A program made the position numbers and the translations under genes. A DNA stretch of 64,000 nt from an uncultured Solirubrobacterales bacterium (lineage in GTDB: Bacteria > Actinomycetota > Thermoleophilia > Solirubrobacterales > 70-9), in contig CAVOPB010000003.1 in assembly GCA_963697805.1 (NCBI GenBank), positions 295,166-359,165 of the forward strand, given 5' to 3'. Position 1 is the stretch's first letter. Each line of letters begins with the position of its first letter. A model generated the notes under the pieces. It saw only the letters and a program-made list of their open reading frames with translations. It was not told where the DNA came from and did not search any database. Positions 3,439-46,925 of the stretch are shown here, piece by piece.

Positions 3439-4916
3439 CCCGCTACCGCCACCTCATCACCGACGACAACCGCAAGTGGTGGACGCTCGGAGCGATGTGC
3501 TTCGCGCTGTTCATGATCATGCTCGACAACACCGTCGTCAACGTCGCGCTGCCGTCGATCCAGAAGGAGCTGGGGGCTTCGATCTCAGGCCTCGAGTGGA
3601 CGACCAGCGGCTACACCCTCTCCTTCGCCGTCATCCTCGCGACGGGCGGCCGCCTCGGCGACATCTTCGGCCGCCGGCTCGTATTCCTGATCGGTGTGGT
3701 CATTTTCGCCATCTCCTCGGCGACTGCCGGCCTCGCCCCCGACCAGACCGCGCTCGTCGCCAGCCGCGTCGTCCAGGGCATCGGAGCGGGGCTGATGATG
3801 CCGGGCACCCTCTCCATCATCACCAACGCCTTCCCGCCGCACGAGCGTGGCAAAGCGATGGGCACCTGGGCTGGGGTCTCCGCTCTGGCGCTCGCGATCG
3901 GCCCGGTGCTCGGCGGCCTGCTCACCGAGCACGTCTCTTGGCGGGCGATCTTCTACCTCAACATCCCCGTCGCGATCGGCGCCGTCGCGGCCACCCTCTT
4001 CGCGGTCCGCGAGTCGCGTGACACGAGTGTCGGCAAGGAGGTCGACTACCTTGGTGTCGCGACCCTGACGACGGGCCTCACTGCGCTGGTCCTTGCTCTC
4101 GTCGAGGGCAACAGCTGGGGCTGGGGCTCGATCCCGATCGTCGCCCTGCTGGCCGGCTCGATCATCGGCCTTGCGTCCTTCGTCTTCGTCGAGCAACGCG
4201 TCAAGGCCCCGATGGTCCAGTTCGAGTTGCTCTCGCACCGCAATTACCTGGGCGCCTCGATCGTCGCCCTGATCATCACCTTCGCGATGATGGGCGTCTT
4301 CTTCTTCCTCGCCCTCTACATGCAGAACATCCTCCACTACTCGCCGCTCGAGGCGGGTGTGAGGTTCCTGCCCTCGACGCTGATGATCGTCGCCGTGGCG
4401 CCGATCTCGGGCCGTCTGGCCGACCGCTTCGGCCCACGCTGGCTGATCGCCGGCGGGCTGACCCTGCTGACCGCTTCGCTGCTGAGCTTCACTCAGATCG
4501 CGGTTGACTCGACTTACCCCGACCTGCTGCCCGGGTTCGTGCTGCTCGGCATCGGGATCGCGATGACGATGTCGCCGATGACGAGCGCAGCGATGAACGC
4601 GGTCCCGGTCCAAAAAGCCGGCGTCGCCTCGGGCGTGCTCTCGATGTTCCGGATGGTCGGCGGGAGCCTCGGCGTCGCCGTCACCGGGGCCATCTTCCAG
4701 GGCGCCATCGGCGCCGACTTCGCCTCTGCGACGCCCCAGGAATTCGTCGACGCGCTGTCGACGGCGATGGCCGTCTCGGCGGGGGTCACCGCGCTCGGCG
4801 TCTTGGTCGGCGCGCTCGTGATTCGAACCGTCCGCAAATCCGCCGCGGTCCCGACTGCGGTCTCCGAGGCGGAGGCGAGTCCGGGCGGAGAGCTGCTGGC
4901 CGGTCGCACCGCCTGA
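3435..4916 (+). CDS. DHA2 (EmrB/QacA-type) MFS efflux transporter
   Basis: MTRYRHLITDDNRKWWTLGAMCFALFMIMLDNTVVNVALPSIQKELG..GGRLGDIFGRR. Multiple hydrophobic spans run through the protein. The 679-aa track ORF (2877..4916) is this frame extended upstream over marR. Confidence 0.85.
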   Translation: MTRYRHLITDDNRKWWTLGAMCFALFMIMLDNTVVNVALPSIQKELGASISGLEWTTSGYTLSFAVILATGGRLGDIFGRRLVFLIGVVIFAISSATAGLAPDQTALVASRVVQGIGAGLMMPGTLSIITNAFPPHERGKAMGTWAGVSALALAIGPVLGGLLTEHVSWRAIFYLNIPVAIGAVAATLFAVRESRDTSVGKEVDYLGVATLTTGLTALVLALVEGNSWGWGSIPIVALLAGSIIGLASFVFVEQRVKAPMVQFELLSHRNYLGASIVALIITFAMMGVFFFLALYMQNILHYSPLEAGVRFLPSTLMIVAVAPISGRLADRFGPRWLIAGGLTLLTASLLSFTQIAVDSTYPDLLPGFVLLGIGIAMTMSPMTSAAMNAVPVQKAGVASGVLSMFRMVGGSLGVAVTGAIFQGAIGADFASATPQEFVDALSTAMAVSAGVTALGVLVGALVIRTVRKSAAVPTAVSEAEASPGGELLAGRTA

Positions 4917-6764: not shown

Positions 6765-7891
6765 GCCGCCGATTGCTTCGGGTAAGGAGGAGGCCTCTTC
6801 GCCTTCTTGATCACCCGTAGCTGGGTCGAGGGGTCCCAGAAGTCGGCTTCGTCCTGGTGGTCGATCAGCTCGTCGATCGGCGTCGCCGGCGTCTCGCCGT
6901 CGAGCCAACCCGAGCGGTTGTCGGGCCGTGGGTTGGAGCCGTTGTCGGGCTGGCGCGCGACGTTCAGCCCGAGGTCCTCGAACATCGCCCGGTCCTCCTC
7001 GGGCTCGGCGCCGAGGGTGGTCAGGAAGTTGCCCATCATCACCCCGTTGAGCCCGGCCCTGACGGCGAGCGGCTGCAGATCGCCGAGGTTCTCGACCCGG
7101 CCGCCGCAGAGCCGGAACAGCGCGCCGGGGATGATCAGGCGGAAGATCGCCACCCACTTGACCACCTCCCAGGCGTCCATCAGGGGCCGGTCGCCGAACT
7201 TGGTTCCCTCGCGCGGGTTGAGCAGATTGATCGGGACCGAGGTCGGGTTCAGCTCGGAGAGCTCGAAGGCCATCTCGACCCGCTGGCGGGGCGTCTCGCC
7301 GAGGTTGAGGATGCCGCCGACGCAGGTCTCCAGGCCGGCCTCCTTGACCGCCTGGATCGTCCGCAGCCTGCCCTCGTAGCGGACCGTCGTCGACACCTCG
7401 GGGTAGTGGGAGCGCGAGGACTCGACATTGTGGTGGACGCGCTGGATCCCGGCCTCGCGCAGCCGCGTCGCCCGTTCCGCCGACATGTGGCCGATCGATG
7501 CGCAGCGCTTGAGGTTTGTCTGCTCGGAGACGAGCTTCGCGCCCTCGAGGATGTTCTCGAAGTCGCGTTTGGAGAGGCCCTGGCCCTGGGTCACCATGCA
7601 GAAGCGGTGCGCGCCCGCCGCCTCGGCCGCCTTCGCGTGCTCGAGGATCTGCTCGGGCTCCATCATCGCGTGCATCGGCGTGTCCGCCTCGGCGTGGCGG
7701 GACTGGGCGCAGAAGCCACAATCCTCCGCGCAGCCGCCGGACTTGGCGTTGACGAGCGAGCACATGTCGGTCGAGTCGCCGAAGTTCTCCTGCCGGACCT
7801 CCCAGGCGCGCTCGACGATCGCTCCGATCTCGTCGTGGTCGGTCCGCTGCCCGAGGTCGAGGGCCTCATCGAACGAGATCAGGGGTCCCAT
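6761..7891 (-). CDS. bioB: Biotin synthase (radical SAM)
   Basis: 376 aa. Radical-SAM motif CAEDCGFCAQS. Also NLKRCASIGH, HHNVESS and GGILNLGET. Confidence 0.9.
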   Translation of the reverse strand: MGPLISFDEALDLGQRTDHDEIGAIVERAWEVRQENFGDSTDMCSLVNAKSGGCAEDCGFCAQSRHAEADTPMHAMMEPEQILEHAKAAEAAGAHRFCMVTQGQGLSKRDFENILEGAKLVSEQTNLKRCASIGHMSAERATRLREAGIQRVHHNVESSRSHYPEVSTTVRYEGRLRTIQAVKEAGLETCVGGILNLGETPRQRVEMAFELSELNPTSVPINLLNPREGTKFGDRPLMDAWEVVKWVAIFRLIIPGALFRLCGGRVENLGDLQPLAVRAGLNGVMMGNFLTTLGAEPEEDRAMFEDLGLNVARQPDNGSNPRPDNRSGWLDGETPATPIDELIDHQDEADFWDPSTQLRVIKKAKRPPPYPKQSAA

Positions 7892-9145: not shown

Positions 9146-9781
9146 CTACTCGTTGGGGACCGCCGCGAGCGACTCCCAGAGGTAGAGCGAGGCGAGGCTG
9201 CGGTGGGGGCGCCAGGCCTCGCCGATCTCGATCACCTCGGTCGGCGCAGGCATCTCCTCGAGCCCGTACTCGATCTGGACCGCCTTGCGGATCCCGAGGT
9301 CGCCGCCGGAGAGGACATCGGGCCGTTCGAGGTGGAACAGGAGGAACATCTCTGCCGTCCACTGGCCGAGGCCGCGGACCGCGACGATCTCCGCGATCAC
9401 CTCCTCATCGCCGAGTTCGTCGAGGCGGTCGAGCTCGAGCTCGCCGGAGATCACGTGCGCGGCGAGGTCGCGGATGTACTCGACCTTGCGCCCGGAGAGG
9501 CCCGCGGCCCGCAGGTCCTCTTCGCTCCCCTCGAGCAGCTCCTCCGGCGAGGGGGTGCTGCCCCCGAACAGGTCGACGACCCGACCGTAGATCGTCCGCG
9601 CCGCTTTGGTCGAGAGCTGTTGGCCGACGATTGCCCGCAGCAGCGCTCCGTAGGCGTCGGGTGGCCGCTCCTCGCTTCGCCGCCGCAGCCGGGTCTCGAG
9701 GTCGATCTCGCCGACCCGCTCGATCAGCGCCGCCATCTCCGGCCCGGTTGCGGCCAGCGCCTTTCGGTCTGCCGCGCTCAC
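9146..9781 (-). CDS. HhH-GPD family DNA glycosylase (3-methyladenine glycosylase II-like)
   Basis: 211 aa. Motifs: IVGQQLSTKAARTIYGR, AAGLSGRKVEYIRDLA, VRGLGQWTAEMFLLF, GDLGIRKAV. Confidence 0.8.
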   Translation of the reverse strand: MSAADRKALAATGPEMAALIERVGEIDLETRLRRRSEERPPDAYGALLRAIVGQQLSTKAARTIYGRVVDLFGGSTPSPEELLEGSEEDLRAAGLSGRKVEYIRDLAAHVISGELELDRLDELGDEEVIAEIVAVRGLGQWTAEMFLLFHLERPDVLSGGDLGIRKAVQIEYGLEEMPAPTEVIEIGEAWRPHRSLASLYLWESLAAVPNE

Positions 9782-10587
9782 TTTCCACTCCAGCGCGGCC
9801 GCCGCTTCTCGGCAAATGCCTGGATCCCCTCGCGGAAGTCGTCCGAGCGGAAGCAGGACTCGCGAAGCGCAACCAGGTCGGCCTCCTGGCGCTCGCTGAG
9901 AGCGGGGTTGGCATTCAGGACCTCGATCGCCTGTTTGTTGCCGCGCATCGAGAGCGGCGCGTTGGCGGCGATCGCCGCCGCCAGCTCAACCCCGGCGCCC
10001 TCGAGATCCTCGTCGGGGAAGACCTCGTGGACGAGCCCGATCTGCTCGGCCCGGGCCGCGACGACGTTGCGCCCGGTCAGGAACAGCTCCTTGGTCCTCG
10101 CCAGGCCGATCGTGTCGAGGAACTTGCGCAGCCCGGTGTGGCCGTAGATCAGGCCGAGCTTGGCGGGGGGCATCCCGAGCTTCGCCCCCGCCGCGCAGAT
10201 TCGCATGTCGCAGGTGATCGCCAGCTCGAGGCCGCCGCCGAGGCAGTGCCCGTTGATCATCGCCACGATCGGCCAGGGGTGCGCCGCCAACGCCTCCATC
10301 GCCGCGTGGAACGGATGGGCGACGAGCAACTCGGCGTCGCGCTCGAAGGTCTGTTCGGGTATCGACCCGATGTCGTACCCGGCGGAGAAGACGGGCGGCG
10401 CGCCGGTGATCAGCACAGAGCGGTTCTCGATCCCGGAGTCGAGCCGCGGCAGGGTCTCGGCCAGGGTGTCGAGGATCTCGTGGTCGAGGGCGTTGCGACG
10501 CTCGGGGTTGGAGATCGTGATCCTGACGACCGCCTCGGCGGGGGAGTCGAGGATCAGCTTGCCGCCGGCGAGCTCCTCGGAGGCCAC
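9778..10587 (-). CDS. Enoyl-CoA hydratase/isomerase family protein
   Basis: 269 aa, crotonase fold. Motifs: NPERRNAL, VFSAGYDI, VAMINGHCLGGGLELA, AFAEKRRPRWSGK. Confidence 0.85.
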   Translation of the reverse strand: MASEELAGGKLILDSPAEAVVRITISNPERRNALDHEILDTLAETLPRLDSGIENRSVLITGAPPVFSAGYDIGSIPEQTFERDAELLVAHPFHAAMEALAAHPWPIVAMINGHCLGGGLELAITCDMRICAAGAKLGMPPAKLGLIYGHTGLRKFLDTIGLARTKELFLTGRNVVAARAEQIGLVHEVFPDEDLEGAGVELAAAIAANAPLSMRGNKQAIEVLNANPALSERQEADLVALRESCFRSDDFREGIQAFAEKRRPRWSGK

Positions 10588-10589
10588 TA

Positions 10590-10655
10590 CTACCTTTCGC
10601 GCTTCGCTCGCGGCGCGAAGAGCCAGGTATGCACGCTTGCTCGCTCCGCGCTCAC
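10590..10655 (-). repeat. Intercistronic cassette copy E1 (mini-ORF MSAERASVHTWLFAPRAKRER)
   Basis: Minus-strand sequence: GTGAGCGCGGAGCGAGCAAGCGTGCATACCTGGCTCTTCGCGCCGCGAGCGAAGCGCGAAAGGTAG. The GTG overlaps the TGA of the biotinyl-carrier gene. Its stop lies directly before the GTG of the enoyl-CoA hydratase gene. It is near-identical to the copy at 46523-46594. Confidence 0.7.
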
Positions 10656-30698: not shown

Positions 30699-30758
30699 TG
30701 GGAGTCTCCCCTCGTTCGCAGCTGATCCAGAAGGCGGCACGCCGCCCTGAAAGTTGCG

Positions 30759-30786
30759 GTGGACAGTAGCACTTCCTACTTACCAC
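30759..30786. promoter_or_regulatory. Imperfect inverted repeat GTGGACAGTAG-N6-CTACTTACCAC, a candidate operator
   Basis: 9 of 11 positions are complementary. It lies in the divergent region between the acyl-CoA dehydrogenase gene (minus) and the enoyl-CoA hydratase gene (plus). The patch is relatively AT-rich. Confidence 0.35.
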
Positions 30787-30809
30787 GGAGTCGGCTATCG
30801 TGCCCGAGC

Positions 30810-31598
30810 GTGGAAGCGGATTACGAGCTCGTCAAATACGAGGTCACGGACGGCGTCGCCACGGTGACGCTGAACAACCCCGAGAAGCGAAACATGCTCT
30901 CCGGCCAGATGCTGGTCGAGCTCGTCGACGCGATCAAGCGGGTCCGCGACGACGAGGACGCGCGGGCCGTGGTTCTGACGGGTGCCGGCGACAAGGCCTT
31001 CTGCGCCGGTGCGGATCTGGGCGGTTTCTCCGCCGACGTCCCGCTTGTTTCAAAACATTTTGCTTCTGATCTTTTCCTTGAATTTTTCCGGCTGATGCCG
31101 CGCCTCGGCAAGCCGTCGCTGTGCGGGGTCAACGGCCACGTCCTCGCGGGCGGGATGGGCCTGGCGCTCTCATGCGACCTGGTGATCGCCAAGGAGGGGG
31201 CGACCTTCGGCACGCCGGAGATCAACGTCGGCGCCTTCCCCTACATGATCATGGCGATCATCTACCGCAACGTCCCGCGCAAGAAGGTCAACGAGATGAT
31301 GCTGCTGGGCGAGCGGCTGAGCGCCTCCGAAGCGGTCGAGTTCGGCCTCGCCAACAAAGTCGTTCCGGCTGCCGAGTTCGACGACGCGGTCGCCGATTGG
31401 GCCGGCAAGCTGGCCTCCAAGAGCCCGGTCCTGATGCGGCTCGGCCACGACGCGATGTATCGCCAGCAGGACATGGCGGTCGACGACGCGCTCGAGTTCC
31501 TGCGCAGCCAGCTATCGCTGACCTTCAGCACCGAGGACATCGTCGAGGGCGTCACCGCCTTCTTCGAGAAACGGGAGCCTCAGTGGAAGGGACGATGA
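30810..31598 (+). CDS. Enoyl-CoA hydratase/isomerase family protein
   Basis: VEADYELVKYEVTDGVATVTLNNPEKRNML, FCAGADL, VNGHVLAGGMGLAL, FFEKREPQWKGR. The chosen start is the GTG at 30810. Confidence 0.85.
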   Translation: MEADYELVKYEVTDGVATVTLNNPEKRNMLSGQMLVELVDAIKRVRDDEDARAVVLTGAGDKAFCAGADLGGFSADVPLVSKHFASDLFLEFFRLMPRLGKPSLCGVNGHVLAGGMGLALSCDLVIAKEGATFGTPEINVGAFPYMIMAIIYRNVPRKKVNEMMLLGERLSASEAVEFGLANKVVPAAEFDDAVADWAGKLASKSPVLMRLGHDAMYRQQDMAVDDALEFLRSQLSLTFSTEDIVEGVTAFFEKREPQWKGR

Positions 31599-33644: not shown

Positions 33645-33964
33645 CCGAGGTCCTGCTCAAGAACGAGAAGGAGCAGTTCACCGGCGTGCTCGTCTTCGAC
33701 GGGACGGTGTTCGAGGCGTTCGGGTTCGAGATCGGTGGCTCCTTCGGAAGCTTCGTCCGGATCCCGGTCGCGATGATGGAGAGCGCCGCCGCCTCTTTCG
33801 ACTCGGGGTTGCTGAAGACTCCGCGGCTACAGATCGTCGGCCGCGAGGACCTCGGCCTCGGCGACCTGCTGCTGCCGTTCGATCCCGACCCCTCCGAGCA
33901 GGCTGCGATCGCCCAGCTTGTCGAGGAGATCCAGAAGGCGATCGACGAGAGGGGGGGAGCATGA
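33641..33964 (+). CDS. Hypothetical protein (107 aa)
   Basis: ATGA overlap with the carboxyltransferase stop. Codon usage is coding-like. I recognise no family. Confidence 0.5.
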   Translation: MTEVLLKNEKEQFTGVLVFDGTVFEAFGFEIGGSFGSFVRIPVAMMESAAASFDSGLLKTPRLQIVGREDLGLGDLLLPFDPDPSEQAAIAQLVEEIQKAIDERGGA

Positions 33965-34032
33965 GCGCGGCAGCGACCGAGTGTCCATATCTGATCCTTC
34001 ACGAGGGAGCGAAGCGCGAGGTTTTGCAATGA
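33961..34032 (+). repeat. Intercistronic cassette copy E2 (mini-ORF MSAAATECPYLILHEGAKREVLQ)
   Basis: ATGAGCGCGGCAGCGACCGAG...GGAGCGAAGCGCGAGGTTTTGCAATGA. The ATG overlaps the upstream TGA and the TGA overlaps the downstream ATG (34029). Both ends match copies E1 and E3. Confidence 0.65.
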
Positions 34033-34925
34033 GCTCATTCGAGGACCCGGTGGTGATCAGCTGCTCGATCAGCGGCGTGATCGCCAACCGCGACCAGTGC
34101 CCGGCGATCCCGTACACCCCCGAGGAGTACGCGGCCGAGGCGCGGCGCGCGGTCGACGAGGGCGCCTCGCAGATCCACATCCACGCCCGCAAGCCGGACG
34201 GGACGCCCTCCTACGAGGTCGAGGACTTCCGGGCGATTACCGACGCGATCCTGGCCGAGGTCGGCGACGTGATCATCAACTACTCGACCGGGGCGATCGG
34301 GATCCCGATCGAGAAGCGGATCGAGTACCTGCGGGAGCTCCGGCCCGACGTCGCCGCGCTCAACATGAGCTCGATGAACTACGCCAAGTACAGCTCCCGG
34401 CGCAAGGACTTCGTCTTCAAAGCGGTCTTCGAGAACAGCTTCGACACGATCATCGAGTTCCTGACGGCGATGAAGGAGCTGGGGGTCAAGCCCGAGCACG
34501 AGTGCTTCGACGCCGGCCACGTCGCCAACCTCGACCCGCTGATCGACATGGGATTGCTGGATCGCACGCCGCTGCAGATCTCGCTCGTGATGGGGGTCAA
34601 CGGCGGGATCAGGCCGACGGCGCGCAACGTCTCGCTGATGTCCGAGCAGATCCCCGGCGGCCCCGAGGGCGAGAACCAGTGGCAGGTGATCGGGATCTCC
34701 CGCGACCAGTGGAAACTGCTCGGCTCCTCGCTGGTCCTCGGCGGCAACGTCCGTGCCGGGGTCGAGGACAACCTCTACCTGCCGAGCGGGGAGATGGCGA
34801 AGTCCAACGGCGAGCTGATCGCCAAGGCGCGGCAGATGGCGGAGGACGTCGGCCGCCGGGCCGCGAGCGTCGCCGAGGCCCGCGAGCTGCTGGGGGTGCC
34901 AAGACGTGAGCGGGCTCCCGCTTAG
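34029..34925 (+). CDS. 3-keto-5-aminohexanoate cleavage enzyme family (BKACE/DUF849)
   Basis: MSSFEDPVVISCSISGVIANRDQCPAIPYTPEEYAAEARRAVDEGASQIHIHARKPDG..., then NMSSMNY and FDAGH. Confidence 0.8.
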   Translation: MSSFEDPVVISCSISGVIANRDQCPAIPYTPEEYAAEARRAVDEGASQIHIHARKPDGTPSYEVEDFRAITDAILAEVGDVIINYSTGAIGIPIEKRIEYLRELRPDVAALNMSSMNYAKYSSRRKDFVFKAVFENSFDTIIEFLTAMKELGVKPEHECFDAGHVANLDPLIDMGLLDRTPLQISLVMGVNGGIRPTARNVSLMSEQIPGGPEGENQWQVIGISRDQWKLLGSSLVLGGNVRAGVEDNLYLPSGEMAKSNGELIAKARQMAEDVGRRAASVAEARELLGVPRRERAPA

Positions 34926-45330: not shown

Positions 45331-45932
45331 TGGCCTCGAAAGCTCCCCCGATCGACAAGCGGCGCCAGATCCTCGACGCCGCGATCAAGGTCTTCGCCCG
45401 CCAGGGCTTCCACTCGACCCGGGTCTCCGACATCGCCGATGAGGCCGGTGTCGCCTACGGCCTGGTCTATCACTACTTCAGCTCCAAGGAGGAGGTGCTG
45501 AACGAGCTCTTCACCGAGCGCTGGTCGCTGCTGCTTGCCGCGATCGACGAGGCTGACAACGCCGGCCAGACGCCGCGCGAAAAGCTCGAGAACGTCGCCG
45601 GCTTCATCATCGAGTCCTACCGGCACGACCCGGAACTGATGAAGGTGATCATCGTCGAGGTCACCCGGGCCGCCAACTCCTTCGGCCAGACCCACCTGCG
45701 CGAGATCCGCCGCGCCTACGACTCGATCGCCAGGATCGTCGAAGAGGGCCAGGAATCGGGCGCGTTTCGCTCCGACATCGACCCCGCATTCGCCTCGATG
45801 ACCTTCTACGGGGCAATCGAGCAGCTTCTCTCGGGCTGGATCTTCGACCTGATCCCGGCCTCCGCCTCGGACTTCCCGAAGGCAAAGGATTTTGTCGTCG
45901 CGACGATCTGCGACGGCCTCGAGCCTCGATAG
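45330..45932 (+). CDS. TetR-family transcriptional regulator (FadR-like)
   Basis: MASKAPPIDKRRQILDAAIKVFARQGFHSTRVSDIADEAGVAYGLVYHYFSSKEEVL. The ATG overlaps the upstream TGA by 1 nt. Confidence 0.85.
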   Translation: MASKAPPIDKRRQILDAAIKVFARQGFHSTRVSDIADEAGVAYGLVYHYFSSKEEVLNELFTERWSLLLAAIDEADNAGQTPREKLENVAGFIIESYRHDPELMKVIIVEVTRAANSFGQTHLREIRRAYDSIARIVEEGQESGAFRSDIDPAFASMTFYGAIEQLLSGWIFDLIPASASDFPKAKDFVVATICDGLEPR

Positions 45933-45954
45933 GTAAGGTCGAGCACAGGCGGGT

Positions 45955-46089
45955 ATGGACAACGACATCGTGAAACGCCTCGTTTGGAGCGGAGTGCTGG
46001 CGGGGGCCAGCGCGCTCGCCAGCATCGCCGCGACGCGGCTGGCGGCCGTCGTCTGGCGCCGGATCTTCGACGAGGACCCCCCCGAGTAA
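45955..46089 (+). CDS. Small membrane protein, DUF4235-like (44 aa)
   Basis: Not in the ORF track because it is under 60 aa. My own translation: MDNDIVKRLVWSGVLAGASALASIAATRLAAVVWRRIFDEDPPE. Third positions are G/C-rich, and it sits directly upstream of the holin-X-like gene. Confidence 0.45.
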   Translation: MDNDIVKRLVWSGVLAGASALASIAATRLAAVVWRRIFDEDPPE

Positions 46090-46097
46090 GGCGATCG

Positions 46098-46526
46098 ATG
46101 TCCGGCCCGGGCGTCACACCTCCAACACCACCCGACGAGGACAGGTCGGTCGGGGAGCTGATCTTCGACGTCTCGGGAAGGGTCTCGACCCTGATCCGCG
46201 AGGAGGTCGAGCTCGCCAAGACCGAGATCAGCGAGAAAGTCGGCAAGATCCTGCGCGGATCGGCCGTCGGGGTCGCCGCCGGGGTGTTCGCCTTCCTCGC
46301 TCTGATCCTCGTCATGGAGGGCTTCGCCTGGCTGCTGAACGAAGAGGTCTTCGACGGCAAGGCCTGGCCCGGGTTCTTCATCGAGGCAGCGATCTTCCTC
46401 CTCGTCGCCGCCGGTGCCGGCTACTTCGCCTATCGCTCGGTCCAGGCCGGCGCGCCGCCGCTCCCCGAGCAGGCGATCGAAGAGGCGAAGCTGACCCGGG
46501 AGATGCTCGAAAAGGAGGAGCCATGA
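46098..46526 (+). CDS. Actinobacterial holin-X (Phage_holin_3_6)-like membrane protein
   Basis: MSGPGVTPPTPPDEDRSVGELIFDVSGRVSTLIREEVELAKTEISEKV..., followed by two TM spans. Confidence 0.65.
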   Translation: MSGPGVTPPTPPDEDRSVGELIFDVSGRVSTLIREEVELAKTEISEKVGKILRGSAVGVAAGVFAFLALILVMEGFAWLLNEEVFDGKAWPGFFIEAAIFLLVAAGAGYFAYRSVQAGAPPLPEQAIEEAKLTREMLEKEEP

Positions 46527-46594
46527 GCGCGGAGCGAGCAAGCGTCGCAATCTGGTTCTCCGCGCCGCGAGCGAAGCGCGAGGTATTCCAATGA
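46523..46594 (+). repeat. Intercistronic cassette copy E3 (mini-ORF MSAERASVAIWFSAPRAKREVFQ)
   Basis: ATGAGCGCGGAGCGAGCAAGCGTCGCAATCTGGTTCTCCGCGCCGCGAGCGAAGCGCGAGGTATTCCAATGA. The ATG overlaps the holin-like TGA and the TGA overlaps the DUF3618 ATG (46591). AAAGGAGGAG lies upstream. Confidence 0.7.
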
Positions 46595-46845
46595 ACGCTC
46601 AGCCCGAGCCCGAACGCCCGGCGACCGCCGGCAGGCCCGGCCGTACCGCGGACGAGATCCGCCACGACATCGACGTCCAACGCCAGGACCTGGGCCGCTC
46701 GGTCGAGGTGCTTCGCAACAAGGTCGCCGAGCTGACCGACTGGCGCCGCCAGGTCAGCGAGCACAAAAACGAGCTCGTGATCGGCGCCGCCGCCGTCGGC
46801 TTCGCAATCGGCGGCTTCCTCGCGCTCCGTCGCCGCCGCAGGTAG
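46591..46845 (+). CDS. DUF3618-like protein
   Basis: 84 aa. RTADEIRHDIDVQRQDLGRSVEVLRNKV..., with a C-terminal TM segment ELVIGAAAVGFAIGGFLAL. Confidence 0.65.
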   Translation: MNAQPEPERPATAGRPGRTADEIRHDIDVQRQDLGRSVEVLRNKVAELTDWRRQVSEHKNELVIGAAAVGFAIGGFLALRRRRR

Positions 46846-46925
46846 CTAGCCACCCCCGGACGCGGGAGCGAGGGCCAGTCCATATCCGTTCTCCTGGCCC
46901 GAGCCGGGAGCAGAGGAGGTGGCGC

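Follow-up and report, generated by a model that had tools for sequence, protein, structure and literature searches.

A short interspersed repeat of Solirubrobacterales operons with a covarying hairpin and MIRU-like behavior, most likely a non-autonomous mobile element

What occupies the short gaps between some of the genes in the operons of an uncultured Solirubrobacterales bacterium? The stretch of DNA analyzed here (the window: 64,000 nucleotides (nt) of contig CAVOPB010000003.1, 69% G+C) holds three copies of a short repeat, E1 at 10584-10655 on the minus strand and E2 and E3 at 33961-34032 and 46523-46594 on the plus strand. Each fills the gap between two genuine, unrelated genes, as judged by Pfam on the flanking open reading frames (ORFs): a Biotin_lipoyl protein followed by an enoyl-CoA hydratase at E1, a 107-aa ORF without a Pfam match followed by BKACE at E2, and Holin-X followed by DUF3618 at E3, where the gene caller of the source record left the 64-nt gap unannotated. 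An earlier, sequence-only reading had placed the copies at these sites, with their start and stop codons overlapping those of the neighbors and a short peptide readable from each; all three points were borne out when the sequence was read again. The copies share one layout: (A/G)TGAGCGCGG, exactly 36 nt, GAGCGAAGCGCGA, and a short tail up to the next start codon. Their 3' motif, given earlier as GAGCGAAGCGCGA(A/G)(A/G)GT, was slightly off in form, the copies reading ...GCGCGAAAGGT, ...GCGCGAGGTT, and ...GCGCGAGGTA. The features at the three sites are as follows.

46523-46590, plus strand: E3 unit of 68 nt, ATGA plus a 64-nt core (hidden Markov model (HMM); covariance model, 79.8 bits).
Within 46523-46590, plus strand: left ATGA of E3, serving as the Holin-X stop (TGA, 46524-46526) and the mini-ORF start.
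46527-46579, plus strand: rod hairpin of E3, element positions 5-57 (family covariation).
46580-46583, plus strand: GAGG, Shine-Dalgarno (SD)-like, immediately beyond the 3' end of the hairpin and 7 nt ahead of the start of DUF3618.
46591-46594, plus strand: second ATGA, where the DUF3618 start (gene 46591-46845) overlaps the stop of the 23-codon mini-ORF (46523-46594).
33961-34028, plus strand: E2, a diverged unit with 1 nt gained after position 10 and 1 nt lost at 43/44, its length unchanged (56.6 bits).
33965-34017, plus strand: rod hairpin of E2 (covariance model, fold).
34029-34032, plus strand: ATGA in which the BKACE start (gene 34029-34925) overlaps the E2 mini-ORF stop.
10588-10655, minus strand: E1 unit of 68 nt; its GTGA (10655-10652) contains the Biotin_lipoyl stop (87.4 bits).
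10599-10651, minus strand: rod hairpin of E1 (family pair counts, covariance model).
10596-10593, minus strand: AAGG of E1.
10585-10587, minus strand: GTG start of the enoyl-CoA hydratase gene (9778-10587), immediately after the E1 unit.

The three-way similarity proved to be far above chance, both in pattern scans and in window-wide model searches. A 13-mer of the copies occurs exactly three times in the window; an HMM built from the three copies matches E1, E2, and E3 only (E 1e-20 to 1e-22, the next match having E>1); and a covariance model run with filters off scores them at 87.4 (E1), 79.8 (E3), and 56.6 (E2) bits, with the next match at 14.9. That the likeness is accidental, or that each copy is an ordinary spacer inherited vertically at its own locus, has nothing in its favor beyond the high G+C; model E-values of 1e-13 to 1e-22 with no other match in the window, hundreds of copies elsewhere, and the emptiness of the E1 and E3 sites in orthologous operons (see below) rule this explanation out, leaving it a probability close to nil. 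No Rfam family matched anywhere in the window at gathering thresholds, nor did any copy yield a family when searched by itself at E-value thresholds. The best sub-threshold matches at the individual copies (GA-cis, 13.3 bits, at E3; sR45, 13.0 bits, near E1; CRISPR-DR31, 13.9 bits, at E2) are mutually unrelated, and an identity of E3 with GA-cis was rejected, since that weak match is absent at E1 and E2.

How widespread is the repeat beyond this window? We scanned one genome per species with a pattern of both element ends, GAGCGCGG-N(30-42)-GAGCGAAGCGCGA, which returned at least 116 stretches, 80 of them listed, and scanned metagenomes with a central pattern that left both ends unconstrained, which returned at least 120 more. 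Together the two scans give a family of at least 236 loci, so that further copies do exist outside the window, and in large numbers. The label Solirubrobacterales is carried by 71 of the 80 listed genome loci, and five more apparent true copies are labeled only Actinomycetes, Actinomycetota, or Acidimicrobiia; among the matches listed, the hosts are Solirubrobacterales metagenome-assembled genomes (MAGs) and soil metagenomes. No Mycobacterium record was found among the 80 listed of the at least 116 genome-scan matches. Neither pattern matched any viral contig, and nothing therefore points to a phage as the vehicle. The window itself matches the fetched loci over kilobases at 72-90% identity, which places it in the Solirubrobacterales at the level of order, and the named homologues of its Holin-X protein are consistent with that placement. 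The Holin-X protein also led to the source contig, contig_72882 of ENA metagenome assembly ERZ25039502; an exact look-up of the BKACE protein returned no record. Copy density is uneven, with three copies in the 64-kb window versus none in ~100 kb from five relatives; a rough count from the match table gives ~15 extra copies in 745 kb of fetched genome loci. A literature search on repeat elements in Solirubrobacterales turned up nothing, and we found no publication on this family.

The unit is 68 nt long, an NTGA followed by a 64-nt core, with a second NTGA beyond it and hence a period of 68. With position 1 as the N of the left NTGA, the consensus reads ATGA GCGCGGAGCGAGC AA GCG [TGCATATCTGGTTCTT] CGC GCC GCGAGCGAAGCGC GAGGATTTGTC ATGA. 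The left NTGA is present in 121 of 127 copies, although its T2 was not part of the search pattern, and the 5' end is ATGA or GTGA in 106 of the same 127. On the right, 85 of 100 copies have A at position 72, directly behind the right-hand NTG. The 31 copies behind a -10-like box, which have no upstream gene in need of a stop, all retain the left NTGA too. Because NTGA is conserved on the left, on the right, and in the absence of an upstream gene, we regard the element as a 64-nt unit bounded by NTGA on both sides. Tandem arrays repeat this unit directly: L005 (fetched loci are numbered with an L) has three copies at a period of 69, L093 has three at a period of 68, and L113 and L085 also have a period of 68. 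Whether the left and the right NTGA begin with the same base was considered as proof of target duplication; the agreement looked strong in a first set of copies, but with tandem arrays removed and more copies added it became weak (odds ratio 2.2, p=0.17), and this proof was given up.

The core is able to fold into a rod hairpin of 53 nt, which compensatory substitutions maintain. From the base upward, pairs 5:57, 6:56, 7:55, and 8:54 are followed by purine-purine mismatches (9.53, 10.52, 11.51), pairs 12:50 and 13:49, a tandem G.A mismatch (14.48, 15.47), pairs 16:46 and 17:45, a small internal loop, and an apical stem (20:41, 21:40, 22:39) that closes a 16-nt loop. In ungapped copies, both partners of a pair change together: G5:C57 becomes A:U (6 copies) or U:G (20), C6:G56 becomes U:A (4), G12:C50 becomes A:U (13), G16:C46 becomes C:G (39) or A:U (7), C21:G40 becomes G:C (7), and G22:C39 becomes A:U (8). 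Whole mismatch runs are rebuilt as Watson-Crick pairs in single copies, as in L166 (GCGCGAAACTCGC/GCGAGTTTCGCGC) and also in L151, L153, L168, L172, L019, and L075. A formal covariation test on 101 distinct metagenome copies, with the 11 pairs, 500 shuffles, and slid controls, found 97.3% of rod cells paired and changes on both sides in 8 of the 11 pairs. Double-change cells in the rod numbered 80 versus 17.9 in the shuffles, none of which (0/500) reached 80, and at most 18 in the slid controls. The covariation of the apical stem is also seen in the genome copies, and RNAalifold recovers the same 11 pairs from a seed chosen by us. In the covariance-model alignment, E2 has a GUG:CAC apical stem with a tandem G.A internal loop, and among the window copies only E2 is predicted to have the rod as its minimum-energy fold. 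On the sense strand alone the mismatches pair purine with purine; on the opposite strand they are pyrimidine-pyrimidine, which favors the sense strand as the one that folds.

The sequence-only reading had drawn a different structure, an 8-bp stem between 46527-46534 and 46558-46565. Its complement, GCGCGGAG/CTCCGCGC, does exist in E3 and is compatible with the consensus, yet it is not a conserved pairing: it shows a single double-change cell, which is the shuffle level, and it breaks whenever the 5' arm varies. We therefore set this stem aside as a conserved structure in favor of the longer rod at positions 5-57. Thermodynamics was likewise rejected as support, since single-sequence folding alone neither finds nor backs the rod (no Z-score is below 0, and the minimum-energy folds disagree with one another). 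Within each arm, positions 7-13 and 49-55 could on their own form a GC-GGA-GC or GC-GAA-GC mini-hairpin, and d(GCGAAGC) is an unusually stable DNA mini-hairpin. Such local arm hairpins in single-stranded DNA could be an alternative fold; the covariation favors arm-to-arm pairing.

Do orthologous operons exist without the element? Comparison of the flanks of all copies with all fetched loci gave 128 comparisons between two filled sites and 62 filled sites with an empty orthologue, the flanks of these being mostly 70-94% identical. Orthologous operons without the element were thus found, and they define the insertion boundaries. The junction is [AGT]TGA in 45 of the 62 empty orthologues, and an ordinary 4-nt stop/start overlap in the examples that we read. 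Clean filled/empty pairs are L167/L166, L166/L165, L206/L064, L012/L217, L080/L211, and L058/L146. As for the window copies, L120 (GAGTGACC) and L109 have no copy at the E1 site, and L238, L241 (which reads GTGAGCGCGG), and L242 have none at the E3 site, which is filled in L216 by a copy of another subtype; no clean empty orthologue of E2 was found among the fetched loci. Read together, the pairs show a 68-nt gain at NTGA start codons, often NTGAGCG and mostly the 4-nt overlaps of operons, in which the left NTGA preserves the upstream stop and the right NTGA restores the downstream start. The suggestion that the element keeps stop, start, and often an SD-like GAGG when it sits at a stop/start junction is supported.

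Some of the fetched loci differ in other ways. L241 and L242 do not have the 107-aa ORF found upstream of E2 in the window, and their carboxyltransferase-BKACE spacers (L241 4582-4641, L242 4461-4601) contain stretches like the loop and 3' stem (GTCGCCATATAC...TTTCGCGCC; TGGTTTTCGCGCC) that fall below the model threshold and may be decayed copies. At the junction that carries E3 in the window, Holin-X and DUF3618 are called as a single 229-aa ORF in L239 and L240 (10001-10690), the junction stop being absent (…GGAGAAATGAACGCT), owing either to fusion of the two genes or to an indel in the assembly. L213 at ~3560-3820 (orthologous to window 30719-30823) is ~150 nt longer between the same two genes, and the extra sequence holds two apparent degenerate tandem copies of the element (ATCCGTGCGGAGCGAGCAAGCG...GGCGGAGCGAGCAAGCAGTCGAAATCTGATTC...).

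In sequence, the targets seem to be like the 5' end of the element itself. At the empty sites, GCG follows NTGA in 18 of 46 (versus a background of 22.7%, p=0.009) and GCGCG does so in 9 of 46 (versus 7.2%, p=0.005); in right flanks, the same GCG(CG) enrichment after NTGA is found in 33 of 81 (p=2e-4). This NTGA plus GCG(CG) is the 5' end of the element. The window contains one such site without a copy, its 10 bases identical to the first 10 of the element:

9772-9781, minus strand: unoccupied target-like site, the GTGA overlap GTGAGCGCGG from the enoyl-CoA hydratase gene to the HhH-GPD gene.

The junction itself (9778-9781) is empty in the window, and the orthologous junction in L109 is filled.

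How do the copies lie relative to genes? Enough flank was available for 192 copies (151 distinct sites). In 184 of them (96%) the downstream gene shares the strand of the element, and 113 stand directly 3' of the stop of a sense gene. Another 31 follow a TAnnnT box by 5-9 nt, versus ~4 estimated from base composition. In empty orthologues of this class, box and gene start are separated by the same distance (L094/L212, L120/L073, L019/L025, L108/L180), and the genes concerned are probably leaderless, to judge from their sequence; at filled sites of this kind, the element's NTG would replace the 5'-terminal start. Adjacent inverted pairs were absent among 217 model matches, in which copies are single or in direct tandem. 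Around E3 (45900-46900) there are no terminator-like sites, the hairpin being followed by GAGG, and a terminator reading was rejected for want of a T-run after the hairpin. Integron attC sites were set aside informally: the copies have no GTTRRRY core, and they are flanked by conserved housekeeping operons, which contain the same genes whether the element is there or not.

Several of these features would suit mobilization as single-stranded DNA, like that of repetitive extragenic palindromic (REP) sequences by REP-associated tyrosine transposases (RAYTs) or of the palindrome-associated transposable elements (PATEs) derived from IS200/IS605. A transposase would recognize the hairpin and the neighboring tetranucleotide (NTGA) and insert the element in fixed orientation beside an asymmetric target, so that its association with start codons would be a consequence of target sequence and selection together, and the mini-ORF would be a by-product. 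The conserved hairpin does directly adjoin a conserved tetranucleotide, orientation is fixed relative to an asymmetric target, and the targets resemble the element's 5' end NTGAGCG, which would suit recognition by base pairing; nor is there an RNA-specific wobble signal. By hand translation, an antisense insertion of equal length would also give an open, coupled frame, so it is not obvious that selection by itself accounts for the 96% in sense orientation. Against these stand the single hairpin per unit, where one at each end would be expected, the complete lack of inverted pairs, the purine-purine mismatches of the sense strand that become pyrimidine-pyrimidine on the other, and the commonness of the U5:G57 subtype (20 distinct copies). 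We consider this route possible, at a probability well short of even.

Most copies have an open frame of 21-26 codons that runs from the left NTG to a stop overlapping or abutting the downstream start. Across 137 distinct sites, the stop overlaps that start as an exact NTGA in 72 and lies no more than 10 nt from it in 102 (74%). An SD-like motif precedes the start in 85 of 132 open-frame copies versus 10 of 37 early-stop copies, and the two features, SD motif and early stop, define subfamilies. In the common subtype, GAGG comes next after the hairpin and lies 7 nt ahead of the start. Length is held constant in the variants, with one-base changes in an arm offset elsewhere so that the unit stays at 68 nt (the GATC subtype and E2), and start offsets other than the mode favor multiples of three (26 of 55, mode excluded; p=0.02). 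One subfamily with the loop CTGATTC, which contains an in-frame TGA, and the tail GCGCGAAATTTATG (L001, L019, L039, L052, L054, L078, L135, L144, L149, L160, L211, L234, and others) is without an SD-like motif and has its downstream start at position 65-66.

Does the mini-cistron encode a functional peptide? The consensus would be a product of 21-23 residues, MSAERASVHIWFFAPRAKRE.., and the open frame with a start codon at most sites and the conservation of both peptide ends could be read that way. However, synonymous changes are not enriched (21% observed versus 15-22% expected at random), early stops occur at 30 of the 137 sites, and the frame of E2-type copies is shifted across the middle. 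The parts of the peptide that are conserved, its ends, fall on the paired arms, and variation tracks base pairs, not codons. Peptide coding was rejected on the synonymous and nonsynonymous counts and the early stops, and we hold it to be very improbable, in agreement with the sequence-only reading, which had already judged the peptide not to be conserved.

A second kind of explanation keeps the hairpin and dispenses with movement: the element would chiefly be a cis-acting RNA module of the host, maintained by selection, whose hairpin binds a protein, is processed by an RNase, or insulates translation just after a stop, and which resets the expression ratio of neighboring genes by replacing tight coupling with SD-driven initiation. 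Compensatory change does occur at sites common to genomes whose flanks are ~80% identical (E3 versus L216, among the 128 filled/filled comparisons), the tandem G.A mismatches are conserved and not repaired, and the hairpin begins 1 nt after the stop codon, as in ribosome termination structures (PMC7518266). A host module is harder to reconcile with neighboring genes that are unrelated, with presence and absence that differ between close relatives, with tandem arrays and degenerate relics, and with a copy density that varies as described above; there is also no terminator-like feature. We think it unlikely.

We therefore read E1, E2, and E3 as members of a short interspersed repeat family of Solirubrobacterales that behaves like MIRUs, the interspersed repetitive units of mycobacteria, and is most likely a non-autonomous mobile element, a reading to which we assign a probability of roughly 0.75. 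The copy number, the covariation, the filled and empty sites, and the lack of a synonymous excess uphold the earlier proposal of a repeated, structured, probably mobile element over a conserved peptide. How might such insertions be tolerated? A ribosome that has completed the upstream gene, or one that has initiated at a leaderless 5' AUG, would translate the mini-ORF, and termination-reinitiation at the second NTGA, helped by GAGG, would pass it on to the downstream start. Insertion would then be almost harmless to operon expression, and copies may survive for that reason. The hairpin would be kept for recognition by the mobilizing machinery or for holding the stop and start close together in the mRNA, and arrays would grow by slippage, as at variable-number tandem repeat (VNTR) loci of the MIRU type.

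Several observations weigh against this reading or parts of it. Movement is deduced from presence and absence, as no transposase, reverse transcriptase, or other mobilizing gene has been linked to the family, and none was searched for. The weak agreement of first bases leaves a true 4-bp target duplication indistinguishable from an element that carries its own NTGA. Single-sequence folding does not favor the rod, which comes out at -16.4 to -17 kcal/mol versus a minimum of ~-21 to -23 and whose pairs have a mean probability of 0.14; many of the double changes may stem from a few amplified subfamilies; and G.U cells (25) are no commoner than A.C cells (32), so RNA and single-stranded DNA are not distinguished. 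Because of the early in-frame stops, mostly the G33A variant ATC-TGA, and the 47 of 132 open-mini-ORF copies without an SD-like motif, the mini-ORF hand-over is not essential everywhere. Finally, structures just after stop codons have been reported to insulate against reinitiation and not to promote it (PMC7518266), on which grounds the element might uncouple neighboring genes instead.

A bolder version would make the element a self-spreading "translational hand-over cassette" whose rod does two jobs. In the mRNA, the rod would fold away the 64 inserted bases, so that a ribosome at the UGA adjoins GAGG-AUG and reinitiates even when the mini-ORF is broken. In targeting, its GCGC-containing 3' arm would pair with NTGA-GCGC sites and home the element to start codons, leaderless ones included, by nucleic-acid guidance, a targeting rule that we know of for no bacterial mobile element and that would, if true, be a novel one. 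We offer this as a speculation that is more probably wrong than right by a wide measure.

A second, related family came to light at L006, L020, L040, L043, L050, L057, L069, L070, L074, L091, and L104 (e.g., on the minus strand of L040 at 7298-7359). It has the same basal arms (GAGCGCGGAGCGA ... GAGCGAAGCGCGA) with a different apical module of 39 nt (nnGAGCGAGATCnCCGGTGAnGATGAnCGCGAnn) and is often without a preceding TGA; in L040 and L006, an internal AATGAGCG seems to terminate the upstream gene, and this would add a few codons. At one orthologous junction, the main family is found in L058 and the second family in L069, L091, and L104. Elsewhere in the window, a 44-aa ORF at 45955-46089 (plus strand), just 5' of the Holin-X gene, has the same place and length in all six related contigs (L237-L242) and looks like a conserved small gene of the Holin-X operon.

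Why might this family matter? MIRUs have served for decades in tuberculosis typing, and, to our knowledge, how MIRU-like elements move and stay harmless within operons is still unknown. Here is a second family with MIRU behavior, in uncultured soil Actinomycetota, which offers hundreds of copies, clean filled/empty pairs, a covarying hairpin, a measurable target bias, and a class of sites behind -10-like boxes, probably at leaderless genes, and which yields testable hypotheses on start-codon targeting and translational coupling. It may serve as a natural template for bicistronic coupling cassettes, and its copies in Solirubrobacterales MAGs could be masked or annotated with a covariance model, for which R1 is an example.

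How does the element compare with known systems? Like the ribosome termination structures of Chemla et al. 2020 (PMC7518266), it places a stable mRNA structure right after an operon stop codon, where it bears on reinitiation. Those structures, however, are a statistical property of native sequence and not a repeated insertion, and they are reported to be insulators, whereas the element adds a coupled mini-ORF and an SD motif (PMC7518266). Rickettsia palindromic elements (RPEs) and other repeats inserted into genes in frame are, like ours, small palindromic repeats tolerated in or near coding sequence with frames left intact. They differ in that RPEs join the host protein, whereas the main family forms a separate mini-cistron between genes; only the related family with the 39-nt core appears to add a few C-terminal codons.

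The sequence-only reading had called the element like a REP or a miniature inverted-repeat transposable element. That it is repeated, structured, and probably mobile stands; the likeness itself fits less well, given the lack of inverted pairs and the sense orientation of the downstream gene in 96% of copies. With REPs, with the bacterial interspersed mosaic elements that they form (REP/BIME plus RAYT), and with the IS200/IS605 PATEs, it shares the character of a short, abundant, hairpin-forming repeat that is co-transcribed with operons and has a tetranucleotide beside the hairpin. REPs, however, are ~35 bp long, typically come in inverted pairs, stand apart from the coding logic, and are found in either orientation, whereas copies of the element are single or in direct tandem, sit on start codons, and nearly always have the downstream gene in sense. 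Its hairpin (5-57) is preceded by a conserved NTGA and measures 53 nt with purine-purine mismatches versus 35 bp in a REP. Membership in the REP/RAYT group was rejected on inverted pairing (217 model matches) and on orientation.

The closest likeness is to the MIRUs. A stretch GAGCGnAGCG...GAGG near the 3' end is probably common to MIRU and element. We know of no MIRU data equivalent to the covarying rod hairpin, the class of sites after -10-like boxes, or the NTGAGCG bias. The sequence-only reading knew of no described element with this behavior, a claim that cannot stand, as reviews describe MIRUs with the same set of features (PMC3184786, PMC12548453). MIRUs (Supply et al. 1997, summarized in PMC3184786 and PMC12548453) are 40-100 bp long, number about 40-50 copies per genome, lie between genes inside polycistronic operons with ORF ends that overlap the adjacent genes, carry tetranucleotide direct repeats and G+C-rich internal inverted repeats, insert at start codons with -4 coupling, and have filled and empty sites that suggest transposition. 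The element, at 68 nt, falls within their size range; lies between the genes of operons and in gene orientation (184 of 192 downstream genes in sense); has an internal small ORF that overlaps its neighbors' stop and start (-4 coupling); shows tetranucleotide direct repeats, filled and empty sites, and internal G+C-rich inverted repeats; and forms VNTR-like tandem arrays. By this analogy, which is drawn from published descriptions and not from sequence, every behavioral feature compared here is found in the element, and the host differs, being Solirubrobacterales and not Mycobacterium. The family is real and previously undescribed, an element of the MIRU kind and not a new kind; what it adds to that kind is a well-supported secondary structure, an NTGAGCG target bias, and a probable link to leaderless start codons.

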